A DNA stretch of 57,820 nucleotides from Fidelibacterota bacterium TCS55 (GTDB lineage: Bacteria; Fidelibacterota; Marinisomatia; Marinisomatales; TCS55): NCBI GenBank assembly GCA_905182385.1, contig CAJJBS010000016.1, forward strand, positions 1-57,820, in the 5' to 3' direction. This document shows, in pieces, positions 3,581 to 42,360 of the stretch. Within the stretch, counting starts at the first letter, position 1. Each line of letters opens with the position of its first letter. The notes under the pieces are model-generated. The model was not told the origin of the DNA. It searched no databases and saw nothing but the letters and a program-made list of their open reading frames with translations. The position numbers were made by a program, and so were the translations under genes.

Positions 3581-4663
3581 ATGAAGAACCAGATTAAAAA
3601 TACTCATATTATATTCTTGAGCTTATTATTTTTTGCATGCGAACCAATTGCTACAGAATTTGACGATATTGAAGCTGCTGTTGAGTATGAATCAGGGAAC
3701 TTGAAGGAATTTGGTCCAAAAAAAACCATAAAAGTAATGACCTGGAATATTCGATTTGGTGTTGCTCGATTACGATTTTTTGGAGATGGTTGCGGAGACA
3801 AGGTTATTATGACAAAGTCAGAAGTGACAACAGGTCTCAAGGGCTTAGCAGCAAAGATAATAGCTGAAGACCCTGATATATTATTATTGCAAGAGGTTGA
3901 TGTTCAGTCTAAAAAAACTGCCTACATAGATCAAGCTCAATGGTTATTAGATAACACGGACATGAACTATGGAGCCTATGGCTCAATGTGGCAAGCGCAG
4001 GCAATCCTTGCTGATGGCCTTGGAAGAGTTAATACAGGCAACCTAATTCTTTCTAAATGGAAATTAGAAAATGCTGAGAGGATTCAGCTTCCATTAAGAG
4101 GTGATCAGGATGGACTTACAAAATATTTTTATCTTCGAAGAAACGTACTAAAAGCCTTAGTAGATATGCCTGGTAATAAATTTTATGCTGTGAATACTCA
4201 CCTTACTGCATTTGCTACAGATGATACAAAACAAAAACATATTACGGGTTTTAAAAGTGTTCTTGATAATATTGCTGCTGAAGGGAAACATTTTGTTGCT
4301 GGTGGCGATCTTAATGAGCTCCCACCGAATGCTTTAAAGACAGATTATTGTATTGAAGATCAGTGTAGTAATGAGTCCTATCATACTGGCGGAGACACTG
4401 AGCATAAAGAAGGAGCCTATTTTACTCCTGAGATTACATGGCTAAATCCATTTTATAATACATATTCTCCCGCAATAACTCTTTTAGATTATGAAGACAA
4501 CGAGTCCGATCATTTTACCCATAGTCCTGATAATAATTTAAAATTAGATCGAAAACTAGACTATCTCTGGACTAATACAGAATGGATAAGCTCAAAAACA
4601 CATAAGGAAGCGACCAAGCTTTCAGACCACATTCCCGTAAGTGCCGTCTGGGAGATTAAATGA
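3581..4663 (+). CDS. Endonuclease/exonuclease/phosphatase (EEP) family lipoprotein
   Basis: 360 aa with a lipobox-like LLFFAC. EEP motifs are present: MTWNIRFG, LLLQEV, NTHL, GGDLN, SDHIPV. Confidence 0.75.
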   Translation: MKNQIKNTHIIFLSLLFFACEPIATEFDDIEAAVEYESGNLKEFGPKKTIKVMTWNIRFGVARLRFFGDGCGDKVIMTKSEVTTGLKGLAAKIIAEDPDILLLQEVDVQSKKTAYIDQAQWLLDNTDMNYGAYGSMWQAQAILADGLGRVNTGNLILSKWKLENAERIQLPLRGDQDGLTKYFYLRRNVLKALVDMPGNKFYAVNTHLTAFATDDTKQKHITGFKSVLDNIAAEGKHFVAGGDLNELPPNALKTDYCIEDQCSNESYHTGGDTEHKEGAYFTPEITWLNPFYNTYSPAITLLDYEDNESDHFTHSPDNNLKLDRKLDYLWTNTEWISSKTHKEATKLSDHIPVSAVWEIK

Positions 4664-38610: not shown

Positions 38611-38670
38611 TTAATCTTTTAAGTAAAAATTAAATTTTGCCTAAATAAATAAATAAAAAGGTTGGTTGAT

Positions 38671-39660
38671 ATGCTTGGAATGAAAAGTATAAAAAGATTA
38701 GAATATATATGGTTGGATGGCTACCAGCCTGAACCATCATTGCGGAGTAAAATCAAAGTAACTAAAGATGAAACTCCGCCGGATTGGTCTTTTGATGGTT
38801 CTTCCACTCAGCAGGCAAAAGGTGGTAGCTCAGATTGTTTGTTATTACCAGTACAAACTTATGATGGCCCTTTGTACGCTGATCAGCTAGTTATGTGTGA
38901 AGTCCAAACTGGTGAACGTAAAACTCATGTTACTAATACTAGGGCAGCAGCAGCGGCAGTAGTAACTGATGAATGGTGGTTTGGGTTTGAACAAGAATAT
39001 TTTTTTACTAATAGAAATGGTGAACCTCTTGGATGGGAAGAAGGAACTCCTAGACCTCAAGGTGATTATTACTGTGGGGTCGGAAGTTTAAATGTTGAAG
39101 GAAGAGAAATTTCAGAAGTTCATCTTGAAGCTTGTTTAGAAGCTGGAATTGAAATAACGGGGACAAATGCCGAGGTTGCTTTAGGCCAGTGGGAATATCA
39201 ATGTTTTGGTAAAGGTATAAAAGCGGCAGACGATCTTTGGGTTAGTAGATATCTTCTATATAAAATTGCTGAAGAGTATGATGTTTGCATTAATATTCAT
39301 CCAAAGCCTAAAACCGGTGATTGGAATGGATCGGGAATGCATGCAAATTTTTCTAATGATGAGATGAGGTCAAAAGGTTCAGAAGCATTATACACATCTA
39401 TTTGTGAAAAATTAGGTAAAGTTCATAAGGACGGTATCAAAGCTTATGGCTCAGATAATGATATGAGACTTACCGGTCTCCATGAAACGCAAAGCATAGA
39501 TCAATTTTCGTATGGCGTAAGCGATAGAGGTGCGAGTCTTCGAATTCCAATATATACGGTTGAGCACGATTGGAATGGATACCTTGAAGATAGGCGTCCC
39601 GCTTCAAATGCAGATCCATATAAAATTTTAGCTCATATTGTTGGAACTCTTAGAAAGTAG
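38671..39660 (+). CDS. glnII: Glutamine synthetase type II (eukaryote-like GSII)
   Basis: About 330 aa with GSII motifs: YIWLDG, WFGFEQEYF, GTNAEVALGQWEYQ, PKPKTGDWNGSGMHANFS, RLTGLHETQ, SDRGASLRIP, YLEDRRPASNADPY. The track's TTG 38662 is an alternative start. Confidence 0.9.
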   Translation: MLGMKSIKRLEYIWLDGYQPEPSLRSKIKVTKDETPPDWSFDGSSTQQAKGGSSDCLLLPVQTYDGPLYADQLVMCEVQTGERKTHVTNTRAAAAAVVTDEWWFGFEQEYFFTNRNGEPLGWEEGTPRPQGDYYCGVGSLNVEGREISEVHLEACLEAGIEITGTNAEVALGQWEYQCFGKGIKAADDLWVSRYLLYKIAEEYDVCINIHPKPKTGDWNGSGMHANFSNDEMRSKGSEALYTSICEKLGKVHKDGIKAYGSDNDMRLTGLHETQSIDQFSYGVSDRGASLRIPIYTVEHDWNGYLEDRRPASNADPYKILAHIVGTLRK

Positions 39661-39674
39661 TATGAAATATAATT

Positions 39675-39712
39675 AGATCGTTTAATTGATTTAAAAATCA
39701 ATTAAACGATCT
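39675..39712. terminator. Long perfect hairpin after glnII (possible bidirectional terminator or protein-binding palindrome)
   Basis: AGATCGTTTAATTGATTT (39675-39692) is the exact reverse complement of 39695-39712. No clear T-tract follows. Confidence 0.45.
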
Positions 39713-39796
39713 ATAATTAAAAATTGCTTTTATAAAGAGCAGTCTATTTTATTAGGTTATATTCTTTTAATTTCTGATATTAATTAAAGAATAATA

Positions 39797-41137
39797 ATGA
39801 ACCGTATTTTATATATTATAATCATATTTTTTATTTTTTCTGGCTGTGAAGAAGTTGAAAAGTCAGAAAAGTCAACTTGGAGCATTATTCAAGAGGAAAT
39901 TATTGTGTCTAGTTGTCTTAATTGCCATGCAAGCGAGTCAACTATTACTAAACAATCAGGTTTAGATTTGTCAAATAATGAGGCTTACAGTGAAATGGTT
40001 GGCGTTACCCCTAAAAATATTGCTGCAAAAAATGATGGTTTGGTTATTATTAGTAATGAAGGAGGTATGAAAGGTTTATCCAAAAGTTTTTTATGGGAAA
40101 AAGTGAATGCATATGACCGCGAACACTATCTTAGTGACCATCCAGAATATGGTCAAATGATGCCTCCGGGTGAAAACTTTTTATCTGATGGTCAATTACA
40201 ATTTGTTAGATCGTGGATCGAAGCTGGGGCTCCAGAATCGGGAACTGTTGTAGATGAAAAATTATTATTGGATTCGAATAGATATTCACCCCCTGAATTC
40301 TCTCCTTTAAAACCTCCAGAAAAAGGCATTCAGTTACACATTAAGCCTTTTGAAGTACAGTCTAATTTTGAAAGAGAATTTTTTCAATATACAGATCTAA
40401 ATATAGAAGGAGATATATATGCAAATCGAATTGAAATTGAAATGAGACCAGGAAGTCACCATTTTATTTTATATTCATTTGATGAAAATATAAACAATTC
40501 AAATATACCTGAATTTGATATTAAAAGAGATTTGAGGTTTGAAGATGGATCTATGAATATTCGAACTCTAAGAACTATGCAGGATCATGAATTTTTCACT
40601 GGAACCCAATGGCCAAGAATGGATTATAAATTACCTTCAGGTGTAGCTTTTAAATTAAATTCAAAATTTGGGATAGATCAAAATTCTCATTATGTGAATA
40701 GATCAGATTCTATTATGATTGGAGAGGTCTTTACAAACATTCATACTATTGAGGAGTCAGAGGTTGTAAAAGTTGCAAATATGTTAAATTGGTCAAACCA
40801 GCAAATTTTATTACCGCCTCAAAAGGTAACTACATTAAATAAGACTTTCATTGCAGATACTCCAATCTCCATTGGTCAGCTTTTTTCACACGCACATGAG
40901 AAAATGACAGAGTTTGTAGTAAAAATTAAAGGTGGGGAACGCAATGGTGAATTAGTCTATTGGACAGATGATTGGAAGCACCCACCTATAATTAACTATG
41001 ATCCTCCTATTAAATTAAATAGTGGTGAAGGGCTTGAGCTTATTACTACATATGATAATCCAAGCAATAAATTTGTTACTTTCGGTTTTTTATCTACAGA
41101 TGAAATGATGATTTTATTTGGTTGGTATTTTAAATAG
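39797..41137 (+). CDS. Lipoprotein fusing a planctomycete-type cytochrome c domain to a PHM/DBH-like copper monooxygenase core
   Basis: 446 aa with a lipobox (FSGC). The N-terminal domain has CLNCH (39914-39928), ..SGLDLS.., ..MPPGENFLSDGQLQFVRSWIEAGAP, as in PSCyt1-like domains. The C-terminal part has the ordered motifs SHHFILY, NSHYVN, SHAHEKM and STDEMMILFGWYF. These parallel rat PHM VHHMLLF (CuH), QVHYG (CuH), VHTHHLG (CuM) and SSDEMCNLYIMYY (CuM Met). Confidence 0.65.
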   Translation: MNRILYIIIIFFIFSGCEEVEKSEKSTWSIIQEEIIVSSCLNCHASESTITKQSGLDLSNNEAYSEMVGVTPKNIAAKNDGLVIISNEGGMKGLSKSFLWEKVNAYDREHYLSDHPEYGQMMPPGENFLSDGQLQFVRSWIEAGAPESGTVVDEKLLLDSNRYSPPEFSPLKPPEKGIQLHIKPFEVQSNFEREFFQYTDLNIEGDIYANRIEIEMRPGSHHFILYSFDENINNSNIPEFDIKRDLRFEDGSMNIRTLRTMQDHEFFTGTQWPRMDYKLPSGVAFKLNSKFGIDQNSHYVNRSDSIMIGEVFTNIHTIEESEVVKVANMLNWSNQQILLPPQKVTTLNKTFIADTPISIGQLFSHAHEKMTEFVVKIKGGERNGELVYWTDDWKHPPIINYDPPIKLNSGEGLELITTYDNPSNKFVTFGFLSTDEMMILFGWYFK

Positions 41138-41148
41138 ACTTTATTTGA

Positions 41149-42360
41149 ATGATATATAGATTTTATCTTTGTTATATTATTTTTTTTATAGCTTTAAGTG
41201 CAAACCTTTATTCCCAAAATAAGTACCCTGTAATATTAGTCCATGGATTTATGGGCTGGGGTCCAGATGAAATGGGCTCATACAAATATTGGGGTGGTAA
41301 ATATGACATTGAAGAATCATTAAGAGAAAGTGGCTTTGAAGTATATACTGCTAATGTTGGACCAGTCTCATCTAATTGGGATCGTGCGGTTGAATTATAC
41401 TACCAAATTAAAGGAGGTCAAGTTGATTATGGAAATACCCAAGTAGAAAAATATGGGATTATTCAGAAGCCAATTAATAAAGAATATATGGGGATATATC
41501 CTGAATGGAGCGATGAAAACCCAATCCACCTTGTTGGACATAGTATGGGCGGTCAGACAATAAGAATGCTAGATTACTTACTCAGAACAGCAATTGTGGA
41601 TTCTTCTTTAAAATATGAAGAAAGTAATTTTTTAGGTAAAATAAATGAAGGTTGGATTAAATCAATTACTTCAATTTCAACACCTCACAACGGTACGACA
41701 CTTTCAGATATCCTCACTTCTGGAATTCCATTTTTACAAGACTTTATTGCCCTCGCAGCAGTAGTCGGAAATTCTTTTTATGATTTTGATCTTGAACATT
41801 GGGGTTTTAGACGAGAGAACAAAGAAGCTTGGGGTAGTTATTTTTCTAGAATGAGAAAACATCCAGCTTGGGGAACAAAAAATATTGTAGCGTGGGATGT
41901 TAGTGTAGAAGGTGCACGTGAGATGAATAGTATATGCACTGCAAACTCTAATATTTATTATTTTTCATATGTTACTAGTAATACTTTATTAGATTCAACG
42001 TCAAATAGGCATGTACCTGAAAAAAGTATGTCATATATAATTAGAGCAAATGCTAGACTGATGGGTATGAGAAAAGCATATTATGCTGATGGCTCAGAAA
42101 CAGATTCAACATGGTTTGAAAATGATGGAATTGTAAATAAGAAATCAATGCTAGGCCCAACAACTGGAAATAATGGTTCTGATCCAATCGGAAATTATAG
42201 ACAAAATGACATATTAATTCCTGGTCAATGGTATGTGATGGGTGAATATAATTCAGATCATAGAAAATTCATTGGACATAAGATTAGTAAAAAAGAGTTC
42301 GATGAGCTCATTAAAGTATATATAAAACATGTGACATTACTGAGTACATTGCCAAAATAG
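41149..42360 (+). CDS. Secreted triacylglycerol lipase of the Staphylococcus/Geobacillus type (family I.5/I.6-like)
   Basis: 403 aa with a signal peptide. Motifs: YPVILVHGFMGWGPDEMGSYKYWGG, VGPVSSNWDRAVELYYQIKGGQVDYG and the nucleophile elbow LVGHSMGGQTIRML. Confidence 0.85.
   Translation: MIYRFYLCYIIFFIALSANLYSQNKYPVILVHGFMGWGPDEMGSYKYWGGKYDIEESLRESGFEVYTANVGPVSSNWDRAVELYYQIKGGQVDYGNTQVEKYGIIQKPINKEYMGIYPEWSDENPIHLVGHSMGGQTIRMLDYLLRTAIVDSSLKYEESNFLGKINEGWIKSITSISTPHNGTTLSDILTSGIPFLQDFIALAAVVGNSFYDFDLEHWGFRRENKEAWGSYFSRMRKHPAWGTKNIVAWDVSVEGAREMNSICTANSNIYYFSYVTSNTLLDSTSNRHVPEKSMSYIIRANARLMGMRKAYYADGSETDSTWFENDGIVNKKSMLGPTTGNNGSDPIGNYRQNDILIPGQWYVMGEYNSDHRKFIGHKISKKEFDELIKVYIKHVTLLSTLPK

Follow-up and report, generated by a model that had tools for sequence, protein, structure and literature searches.

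The gene at positions 39797..41137 of the window, the whole 57,820-nt stretch of DNA analysed here, encodes a 446-aa protein that we consider, with moderate confidence, to be an exported, lipid-anchored redox enzyme composed of two modules: a haem c module and a dicopper monooxygenase of the type known from peptidylglycine alpha-hydroxylating monooxygenase (PHM) and DBH, with the haem acting as electron donor. The gene and its predicted export signal are located as follows.

39797..41137, + strand: the whole gene, an open reading frame with an ATG start, encoding a 446-aa predicted lipoprotein with a haem c domain and a dicopper core of PHM/DBH fold
39797..39847, + strand: predicted signal peptide with lipobox F-S-G-C and lipidated Cys17, read from the translation; the lipobox Cys is kept in tail-less relatives

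The translated N-terminus, MNRILYIIIIFFIFSGC, contains the lipobox FSGC with C17 that a previous sequence-only reading had recognized. The hydrophobic signal peptide MNRILYIIIIFFIFSG-C17 is a feature of bacterial lipoproteins and is followed by the acidic stretch EEVEKSEK. In the translation of exactly these coordinates, the entire protein contains just three cysteines: C17 of the lipobox and C40 and C43 of the motif CLNCH. This Marinimicrobia gene is transcribed in the sea, as near-identical contigs cover most of it in four independent marine metatranscriptomes.

Searched alone, the 446-aa protein returned nothing significant from Pfam and NCBIfam, no significant match in a single-sequence search of the PDB and no match at E ≤ 1 to the two families PF01082 and PF03712. 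A full-length profile of 20 sequences (A1) also found no match in the PDB. The relationship to PHM and DBH is carried by the predicted structure of the core and by a profile of the core (A2) that was built with stand-alone relatives among its sequences. The AlphaFold model of the core (residues ~175–446, pLDDT ~90) was compared with the PDB using Foldseek, and the top 31 matches are all PHM or DBH, with E values from 1e-12 to 8e-10, TM scores of 0.62–0.65 (normalized to the target) over ~300 aligned columns and a sequence identity to PHM of 13–14%. Next in rank, at E > 5e-6, come jelly-roll capsids, which are unrelated. Comparison of the A2 profile with the PDB yields PHM (E 1e-6) and DBH (E 1e-3) only, and all six copper ligands are aligned. 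The core and its putative ligands map to the following positions, where the counts refer to representative clusters of the family.

40319..40762, + strand: first beta-sandwich, the CuH domain, residues ~175–322; model pLDDT ~90, Foldseek matches to PHM/DBH, and a PHM profile alignment that spans both domains
40457..40462, + strand: His221-His222, counterparts of the PHM CuH ligands H107/H108, aligned to VHHMLLF; each 130/130 clusters
40688..40690, + strand: His298, counterpart of the PHM CuH ligand H172, aligned to QVHY; 128/128 clusters
40763..41134, + strand: second beta-sandwich, the CuM domain, residues ~323–446; matched by Foldseek and, in relatives, by Pfam Cu2_monoox_C
40889..40897, + strand: His365-Ala-His367, counterparts of the PHM CuM ligands H242/H244, aligned to VHTHH; 123/125 and 124/125 clusters, respectively
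41105..41107, + strand: Met437 in STDEMM, counterpart of the PHM CuM ligand M314, aligned to SSDEMC; 119/121 clusters

In the translation, the pair H221/H222 lies within SHHFILY, H298 within NSHYVN, H365-A-H367 within SHAHEKM and M437 within STDEMMILFGWYF. The motif-by-motif pairing with PHM had previously been proposed from the sequence, in this order. An HMMER profile alignment, which is unbiased, arrives at the same result and pairs (family/PHM) gsHHlil with VHHMLLF, nsHY with QVHY, sHtHkrg with VHTHHLG and SeDEMn with SSDEMCN. Conservation was counted over 150 representative clusters that are mutually ≤50% identical, with denominators that vary by column, and amounts to 98–100% for the six ligand residues; H367 is replaced by Gln in two Poribacteria-like members. 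Asn296, located two residues before His298, aligns with PHM Q170 and is Asn in 124/129 clusters. The match of the ligand set exceeds chance, because the Foldseek comparison reaches E 1e-12, the profile comparison reaches E 1e-6 and the residues are nearly invariant over the 150 clusters. We further considered H264, H110, H115 and H395 as additional ligands and rejected them, as they are not conserved throughout the family.

The Pfam models for these enzymes respond to relatives of the protein to different extents. PF03712 (Cu2_monoox_C) is matched weakly and below cut-off by 15 of the 20 close relatives, and its cut-off of 23 is passed by more distant relatives only (P0160 with 35.4 bits and P0138 with 25.4 bits). 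PF01082 is matched by no family member tested. The earlier reading is supported on both points at which it could have failed: similarity to the PHM fold is significant by profile and by structure, and the six putative copper ligands are conserved among homologs. The A2 profile reaches PHM and distant members pass PF03712; the 446-aa protein itself stays below the cut-offs. Because only its more distant members pass the Pfam cut-off, we assign the family to the PHM/DBH superfamily (copper type II ascorbate-dependent monooxygenases), in which it forms a bacterial clade of its own.

A retained fold could in principle also serve a lipoprotein that binds copper or haem non-catalytically, for instance in metal storage or delivery. 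The gene of an MbnP copper-binding protein, found two genes away from one stand-alone relative, would fit such a role. Both copper sites and the haem site are, however, kept almost perfectly over deep divergence, as expected under purifying selection on redox catalysis, and storage has no need of a Met-His2 CuM site opposite a His3 site. We regard such a non-catalytic role as highly improbable.

Comparison with PHM, the catalytic core of PAM (PDB 1PHM, 1OPM, 1SDW, 3MIC), shows a shared fold of two beta-sandwiches (Foldseek E 1e-12, TM ~0.63), the same six copper ligands in the order HH..H / HxH..M, an SxDEM sequence around the CuM methionine and Asn296 in the position of Q170. PHM is thus the best match in both structure and sequence, and peptidase genes are located near some loci of the family (M1 at L004, S9 at six Gemmatimonadota loci and M16 at L128). 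Both observations would be in line with a true bacterial PHM ortholog that amidates peptides. The differences make such an enzyme very unlikely. In PHM, R240, N316 and Y318 bind the carboxylate and backbone of the peptide; they align with F363, I439 and F441 of the 446-aa protein, and the R240 column across the bacterial family contains T, S, F or V. Identity is limited to 13–14%, the bacterial core is free of cysteine and hence has none of the disulfides of PHM, no PAL partner is present, and a conserved lyase partner was not found in the neighbourhoods examined. Moreover, the bacterial protein is lipid-anchored and has a haem c domain at its N-terminus, and haem rather than ascorbate is presumably its reductant. 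Since the peptide-binding residues are absent, we infer a substrate other than a glycine-extended peptide, and the exchange of R240, N316 and Y318 for F, I and F makes the pocket look more hydrophobic than that of PHM.

DBH (PDB 4ZEL), tyramine beta-monooxygenase and MOXD1 share the catalytic core fold and the ligand set. DBH also resembles the 446-aa protein in having an accessory N-terminal domain, DOMON, ahead of the dicopper core. DOMON is a beta-sandwich, whereas the bacterial haem c domain is predicted to be all-helical and is unrelated to it. Disulfide bonds link DBH into a tetramer, and its C-terminal dimerization domain is missing from the bacterial protein.

The region preceding the core contains the following features.

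39866..40291, + strand: predicted N-terminal all-helical haem c-binding domain, residues 24–165; delimited in alignment A3, model pLDDT 86.8 with 10 short helices
39914..39928, + strand: haem attachment motif CLNCH with C40, C43 and proximal His44; invariant in A1 and A3
40160..40162, + strand: Met122 in YGQMMPPG, predicted distal haem ligand; invariant in A1 and A3 and Met in 110/119 clusters

CLNCH at residues 40–44 is the sole CxxCH of the protein, in agreement with the single haem motif noted previously. Of 112 clusters, 109 retain the pattern C-x2-4-CH; the spacing is x2 in 56, x3 in 10 and x4 in 43 of them. Met122 belongs to a YGxxMP motif, this Met is also kept in the split stand-alone cytochrome genes described below, and from its position it would be the second haem ligand. 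The same genome encodes CcmF-like (130.9 bits) and CcmC-like (82.8 bits) components of haem lyase. The putative haem domain is assigned by these motifs and not by its fold: compared with the PDB by Foldseek, the model of residues 24–165 gave no match at E ≤ 0.001, cytochrome c included, and the N-domain profile reached FoxE and cytochrome c6 at E ~1, which is not significant (top match FoxE, E 0.67). The matches of the N-domain in Pfam are all below threshold and comprise CTI in 24 of 26 members, Cytochrome_CBB3 in 13/26, Cytochrom_C in 7 and PSCyt1 in 7. The planctomycete-type PSCyt1 pattern named in the sequence-only reading is the one weak element of that reading, as the 446-aa protein itself matches PSCyt1 below threshold at E 0.075–1.2.

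The nearest relatives of the N-domain in sequence are the N-terminal haem c region of CTI (PF06934) and PSCyt1 (PF07635), at the level of sub-threshold matches. Both share with it the pattern CxxCH ... G..MP ... W(I)..GAP, neither family has a matching solved structure, and outside this region CTI bears no relationship to the PHM core. The best signal stems from the haem region of CTI, profile positions 75–115 (best E 4.2e-5). For the haem of CTI, a fatty acid cis/trans isomerase, a catalytic role has been proposed instead of that of a relay. By analogy, the bacterial haem domain could be a catalytic or ligand-binding site or a sensor, with the two modules then acting in sequence on a common substrate. 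This reading gains from the CTI signal, from the missing fold match to canonical electron-transfer cytochromes and from the size of the domain, which at ~140 aa exceeds that of class I cytochrome c. The CTI matches are, however, below the Pfam cut-off and cover only ~40 residues, and, from the invariant His/Met pair, the haem is predicted to be six-coordinate and low-spin and to lack a free coordination site, as is characteristic of electron carriers. This module also exists as a free-standing small lipoprotein beside stand-alone cores, as is typical of redox partners. We consider a catalytic or sensory haem unlikely.

The fusion of the haem module to the PHM-like core is real and widespread, and the split form represents the best new evidence of a haem–copper partnership. 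Stand-alone cores have a homologous haem lipoprotein gene directly upstream in 6/9 loci; the remaining 3/9 have no adjoining cytochrome gene. The encoded lipoproteins comprise 142–183 aa, their genes are located 9–48 bp upstream of the core gene on the same strand, and they match the N-domain with 27–87 bits while keeping both C-x2/4-CH and the methionine. The occurrence of the two modules as adjacent separate genes supports a functional partnership, e.g. electron donation.

To our knowledge, PHM, DBH and their relatives have been characterized in eukaryotes only, with ascorbate as the sole reductant. The bacterial family probably takes electrons from haem rather than from ascorbate (vitamin C). 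In the mechanism that we propose, module 1 (residues ~24–165) would contain one covalent haem c bound via C40/C43, with His44 and Met122 as predicted axial ligands, and module 2 (residues ~175–446) would be a non-coupled dicopper monooxygenase with H221/H222/H298 at CuH and H365/H367/M437 at CuM. An external one-electron donor would reduce the haem, the haem would deliver single electrons in succession to CuH, and CuH would transfer them to CuM. Cu(I)M would then bind O2 and attack a substrate lodged in the cleft that separates the two sandwiches, hydroxylating one of its C–H bonds, with haem in the place that ascorbate has in the animal enzymes.

Electron flow could also run in the opposite direction, or the enzyme could be an oxidase that does not insert oxygen. 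In such a case, electrons from a reductant such as Fe(II), a reduced organic compound or a periplasmic cytochrome would pass to O2 at copper, or electrons from the substrate would pass via the haem to the respiratory chain. FoxE, the top PDB match of the N-domain, is a c-type iron oxidase, and the gene context points to no substrate. The FoxE match is not significant, however, and the core contains the complete PHM-type CuH/CuM set including the CuM methionine, which in all characterized members that we know of performs coupled C–H hydroxylation. An oxidase or a reversed electron flow therefore appears quite improbable, and we retain haem-driven hydroxylation as the preferred reading.

Cytochrome c-tethered copper enzymes are known: Ralstonia pickettii and Pseudoalteromonas haloplanktis have copper nitrite reductases of three domains, and in Wolinella NosZ carries a cytochrome c extension. 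These exported enzymes resemble the proposed system in using a fused mono-haem cytochrome c as a built-in one-electron donor to copper. They differ in being cupredoxin or beta-propeller enzymes that reduce nitrogen oxides, whereas the PHM-type dicopper core would activate O2, and there is no homology. Another parallel is provided by partners that are separate proteins: the cytochrome domain of cellobiose dehydrogenase (CDH) donates electrons to lytic polysaccharide monooxygenases (LPMOs). In both cases an extracellular haem domain feeds, or in the bacterial family would feed, an extracellular copper monooxygenase, and the bacterial family includes secretion tails and dockerin, Ig and FG-GAP modules. 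LPMOs, in contrast, contain a mono-copper histidine brace, CDH has haem b in a DOMON-like fold, its electrons come from a flavin source, and neither is homologous to the bacterial modules.

In the relatives, a lipobox and a T9SS tail are alternatives, and dockerin, Ig or FG-GAP modules occur in addition. A lipobox is present in at least 17 of 23 tail-less fused relatives and in 0/36 relatives with a C-terminal tail of ~100 aa. Sorting by lipobox or T9SS suggests a location at the cell surface, so that the enzyme probably resides there or in the outer periplasm. The description of the haem domain as a built-in periplasmic electron donor is supported with reservations: the fusion is real and the split form supports the partnership, the haem is the probable electron donor, and the detail "periplasmic" is doubtful.

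A full-text literature search retrieved no paper on a bacterial cytochrome c–PHM fusion or on bacterial PHM-like enzymes. We tentatively suggest, as a possibility that we hold to be rather doubtful, that the family constitutes a large class, unstudied until now, of haem c–dicopper monooxygenases that act at the cell surface or outside the cell in the FCB group and allied bacteria. In this class, a dedicated cytochrome, fused or adjacent, would replace ascorbate, and C–H oxidation of extracellular organic matter would extend beyond the reach of hydrolases, as a PHM-fold counterpart of CDH–LPMO. The class might be the sister group of animal PHM/DBH among prokaryotes, or perhaps even their source. 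Animals use oxygenases of this type to amidate hormones and to make noradrenaline, and the bacterial family would help to trace where these hormone-processing enzymes came from in evolution. The transfer of electrons from CuH to CuM across ~11 Å has long been debated. Protein-mediated reduction of CuH would bear on this debate, and the bacterial clade would offer a naturally occurring system for triggering the transfer of electrons to CuH and tracking it optically. SAR406/Marinimicrobia and Bacteroidota, which are abundant marine heterotrophs, would in addition have a new type of oxygenase that may contribute to the turnover of dissolved organic matter.

The gene is flanked by two features of the window.

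39674..39713, strand not assigned: perfect 18-bp inverted repeat directly 3' of the stop codon of the upstream glutamine synthetase gene
41149..42360, + strand: secreted Lip_C lipase (Pfam E 1.7e-62), starting 11 nt past the stop codon of the target gene

The inverted repeat is probably a terminator that separates glutamine synthetase from the target gene. The adjacent secreted lipase had been identified correctly from the sequence, and it is probably co-transcribed with the target gene, as RNA contigs span the junction between the two. We rejected the lipase as a functional partner, since the arrangement is lineage-specific synteny with an adjacency limited to the target's own family in the phylum. 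Among 201 genomes of the phylum, the lipase occurs in 57 and the target gene in 22. In other Marinimicrobia families the lipase is unlinked or absent, and in genomes of the same family that lack the target gene, glutamine synthetase directly precedes the lipase, or else the slot is occupied by a sulfotransferase-like gene. The context of glutamine synthetase, Amt, PII and GOGAT was likewise rejected as a hint at ammonia release, as it is phylum-specific synteny and is absent from all non-Marinimicrobia loci. De novo clustering of the neighbours of the fused form in 43 loci outside this synteny block, mostly from non-Marinimicrobia, revealed no recurrent partner; the largest groups consisted of the S9 peptidase (six loci in Gemmatimonadota) and of NifS (Poribacteria).

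Homologs of the 446-aa protein comprise 1019 close sequences and at least 3148 representative clusters at 50% identity. Carriers were found in Marinimicrobia, Bacteroidota, Rhodothermia, Gemmatimonadota, Poribacteria, KSB1 and Calditrichia. One carrier, Ekhidna lutea DSM 19307, whose ortholog has the accessions SNS42869.1 / WP_144017279.1, is available in culture, which makes the proposed reading testable.

The open reading frame at 39797..41137 (+) encodes 446 aa, and the lipobox, haem motif and copper motifs that a sequence-only reading had placed in it were all found upon translation of these exact coordinates:

Signal peptide MNRILYIIIIFFIFSG-C17, with the lipobox
Residues 40-44, haem motif CLNCH
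Residues 221-222, HH in SHHFILY
H298, in NSHYVN
H365-A-H367, in SHAHEKM
M437, in STDEMMILFGWYF

The protein contains only three cysteines, one in the lipobox and two in the haem motif. As a single query it matched nothing significantly in Pfam, NCBIfam or the PDB sequences, and its homology to PHM and DBH is therefore remote; three independent lines show that its C-terminal two-thirds are a PHM/DBH-type core. We built an AlphaFold2 model on 20 homologs (mean pLDDT 81, about 90 across residues 175-446), whose best 31 PDB matches in Foldseek were all PHM or human DBH (E 1.3e-12 to 8e-10; TM 0.62-0.65 normalised to PHM over about 300 columns), followed by unrelated double-jelly-roll capsids at E > 5e-6. 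A core HMM derived from residues 165-446 and 15 relatives, mostly stand-alone cores, matched PHM (E 1e-6) and DBH (E 1e-3) only among 177,635 PDB sequences. The HMM alignment pairs gsHHlil with VHHMLLF, nsHY with QVHY, sHtHkrg with VHTHHLG and SeDEMn with SSDEMCN, the same motif-by-motif pairing that had been proposed by eye, and covers all six PHM copper ligands (H107, H108 and H172 at the CuH site; H242, H244 and M314 at the CuM site). The Pfam model Cu2_monoox_C matched 15 of 20 close relatives weakly, and two members of the family lie above its cut-off of 23, P0160 with 35.4 bits and P0138 with 25.4 bits. The resemblance to the PHM fold is significant for both profile and structure.

Searched with a profile, 1.84 billion representative proteins yielded a family of 3148 clusters at E <= 1e-3, of which 1332 reach E <= 1e-10. 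We aligned the 150 best clusters (<= 50% mutual identity) and counted retention among the sequences covering each column; the putative copper ligands are near-invariant.

Predicted copper ligands of the target and their retention in the family
H221, CuH ligand, 130/130 clusters
H222, CuH ligand, 130/130 clusters
H298, CuH ligand, 128/128 clusters
H365, CuM ligand, 123/125 clusters
H367, CuM ligand, 124/125 clusters
M437, CuM ligand, 119/121 clusters

H110, H115, H264 and H395 are invariant in close relatives, yet they are not kept family-wide, and retention of precisely the PHM ligand set while other histidines vary is as expected of a functional dicopper site. Asn296, the counterpart of PHM Q170, is retained in 124/129 clusters. 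The peptide-binding residues R240, N316 and Y318 of PHM, by contrast, align with F363, I439 and F441, the R240 position holds T, S, F or V throughout the family, and the disulfide cysteines of PHM are missing. The target would thus operate like PHM/DBH at its predicted metal sites, whereas the absence of the peptide-binding residues and disulfides argues that it is not a peptide-amidating ortholog and that its substrate would not be peptidylglycine.

Modelled alone, residues 24-165 form an all-helical domain (pLDDT 86.8, pTM 0.84). C40, C43 and H44 are invariant across close and medium-distance relatives, and in 112 clusters covering the site the motif is spaced C-x2-CH (56), C-x3-CH (10) or C-x4-CH (43, for example CATSGCH); of the three clusters in which it is missing, P0177 is a search-window artefact and P0230 a fragment. 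Haem attachment sites typically vary in spacing in this way while always retaining Cys...Cys-His. Met122, within a YGxxMP motif, is invariant in the same relatives and conserved in 110/119 clusters, from which His/Met ligation of the kind found in electron-transfer cytochromes is predicted. The target is exported by Sec, and CcmF- and CcmC-like maturation proteins are encoded in the same genome; the CcmC-like match (G000:C4:27351-27896) carries one in-frame TAA, which may be a genuine break in the gene or lie in an overhang of the alignment.

Among 26 N-domains, sub-threshold Pfam matches were obtained to Cytochrome_CBB3 (13), Cytochrom_C (7), PSCyt1 (7) and Cytochrom_C550 (5), and in 24 of the 26 to the N-terminal haem region of CTI, the fatty acid cis/trans isomerase (best E 4.2e-5). 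Against the PDB, the N-domain profile matched only FoxE and cytochrome c6, at E about 1, and Foldseek returned no PDB fold match to the confident N-domain model. Judged by its motif, the domain is a putative haem c-binding module whose fold is divergent or unsolved. The label 'planctomycete-type' given to it earlier is weakly supported for the target, the PSCyt1 matches being sub-threshold; a true PSCyt1 domain (39 bits) is an additional module in the relative P0197.

Family members adopt the following architectures:

Haem domain and core, about 446 aa, as in the target
Haem domain and core extended C-terminally by about 100 aa, in every tail scanned a T9SS sorting domain (Por_Secre_tail)
Haem domain and core with N-terminal dockerin, Ig-like, DUF5648, DUF4214, FG-GAP or PSCyt1
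Stand-alone core, about 310-330 aa

Nine stand-alone cores had readable upstream DNA (L128, cut at a contig end, was unscored). A separate haem-domain gene lies directly upstream in six of these loci (L088, L097, L116, L117, L126 and L127) and is absent from that position in L087, L089 and L129. In all six, the upstream gene is on the same strand at a gap of 9-48 bp and encodes a lipoprotein of 142-183 aa that scores 27-87 bits with the N-domain profile and retains a C-x2/4-CH motif and the G..MP methionine. Of the evidence available, this occurrence of the modules in both fused and split form argues most strongly for the haem module as the dedicated partner of the copper core. As predicted from sequence and model, the target joins a dicopper oxygenase core of PHM/DBH fold to a haem c module, and very probably carries haem c and two coppers, the latter bound at PHM-like sites. 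The most economical role of the module would be one-electron delivery from the His/Met haem c to CuH, replacing ascorbate; we lean towards this full mechanism, haem c feeding a PHM-type dicopper oxygenase, with some reserve.

In L088 (1542-2138), L097 (2433-3089) and L126 (3985-4575), the core is followed by a third gene for a protein of about 200 aa. These proteins are alike (mutual blastp E 1e-17 to 1e-21) and have the look of small outer-membrane beta-barrels, which suggests a three-gene unit of cytochrome, core and barrel in split relatives; a Pfam scan of the L097 protein, the sole one scanned, gave no match. A single copper-related neighbour was seen, a gene for the copper-binding protein MbnP (PF20243) two genes past the stand-alone core of L088, downstream of it (2205-2813). 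FG-GAP / ASPIC-UnbV beta-propellers, some with a T9SS tail, recur beside family members or fused to them (L004 4727-5914; L116 2834-3820 (-); L117 2816-3844 (-); protein P0143). This combination of a PHM-like core and a propeller is reminiscent of animal PHM-PAL, but the propeller family differs.

Among representative clusters, a lipobox is present in at least 17/23 tail-less fused proteins, the rest being mostly missed by the regular expression, and absent from 36/36 fused proteins with the roughly 100-aa tail. That lipid anchors and T9SS tails exclude each other, and that dockerin, Ig and FG-GAP modules occur in the family, points to a cell surface or extracellular location. The acidic stretch after Cys17 (C-EEVEKSEK) has the look of a lipoprotein export signal of the type described in Bacteroidota. 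The sequence-only reading is thus confirmed in its observation and supported in its interpretation of a built-in donor, to which the split-gene partners add; the periplasmic location is uncertain, and that wording needs revision if the surface location is right.

Full-length fused orthologs were found at at least 337 places in GTDB species-representative genomes, a lower bound given that the scan used two peptide patterns only. The carriers are Marinimicrobia, Bacteroidota (including Cyclobacteriaceae, Flammeovirgaceae, Winogradskyella and the cultured Ekhidna lutea DSM 19307), Rhodothermia, Gemmatimonadota, Poribacteria, KSB1, Calditrichia and Limisphaerales, and 42/401 sampled Bacteroidota genomes hold a family member. 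Public databases list close Marinimicrobia homologs as 'hypothetical protein' and the Ekhidna ortholog as 'Copper type II ascorbate-dependent monooxygenase, C-terminal domain' or 'monooxygenase', labels by which automated pipelines caught the C-terminal half and missed the haem module and complete ligand set. A full-text literature search found no study on bacterial PHM-like enzymes or the cytochrome c fusion. Names attached to near-identical proteins and loci assign the organism to Marinimicrobia (SAR406, Neomarinimicrobiota). Its DNA is present in many seawater metagenomes, and four independent marine metatranscriptomes contain near-identical contigs (0-2 differences) that span most of the target at a depth similar to its neighbours, some DNA carry-over being possible.

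The target is flanked by:

38662-39660, short glutamine synthetase (GS, about 330 aa)
39674-39713, perfect 18-bp inverted repeat with 4-nt loop (TAGATCGTTTAATTGATTT aaaa AAATCAATTAAACGATCTA), 14 nt past the GS stop, between GS and target
41149..42360, Lip_C lipase (Pfam E 1.7e-62) of Staphylococcus/Geobacillus type (NCBIfam lipase_YSIRK_Sa domain, E 5.7e-80)

The hairpin is probably a bidirectional terminator, implying a promoter of the target's own. Target and lipase are probably co-transcribed, as judged from the 11-nt gap, the lack of a terminator and RNA contigs across the junction (X26, 41016-41194; X31, 41073-41278). Both lie in a conserved Marinimicrobia housekeeping block that runs PriA, a 297-aa protein, AsnC, GS, target, lipase, tRNA-binding protein, MarR, MutY and acyltransferase. 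Outside this block, every other phylum sampled included, neither an adjacent GS or lipase nor any other recurrent neighbour was found.

In the phylum sample, the target occurs in 22/201 genomes (15/78 genera) and the lipase in 57/201, so that the lipase, widespread in the class, is an old resident and not a recent import. Their adjacency is limited to the window's own family (11/11), in which ten further genomes have the lipase and lack the target. Three of these ten were inspected: in L094 and L095 GS is directly followed by the lipase, and in L093 the slot holds a sulfotransferase-like gene of 259 aa on the opposite strand (3758-4537 (-)). In its behaviour the slot is a small accessory-gene hotspot, and the target is a single-gene accessory insertion in it. 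The lipase noted earlier is indeed adjacent, but distribution and slot variability make it irrelevant to the target's function and rule it out as a clue to the substrate.

GS itself shows bimodal identity to the window copy across loci L007-L051: one set of Marinimicrobia has 80-94%, another about 50-53%, whereas flanking genes vary smoothly (in L017, AsnC 84% and GS 50%). The pattern suggests that a different GS lineage has replaced the gene in place. Directly upstream of the Ekhidna lutea ortholog (L054 3714-5879), a 721-aa protein has motifs such as SNGFAISG that suggest an Ntn hydrolase, either a penicillin acylase or an acyl-homoserine-lactone acylase.
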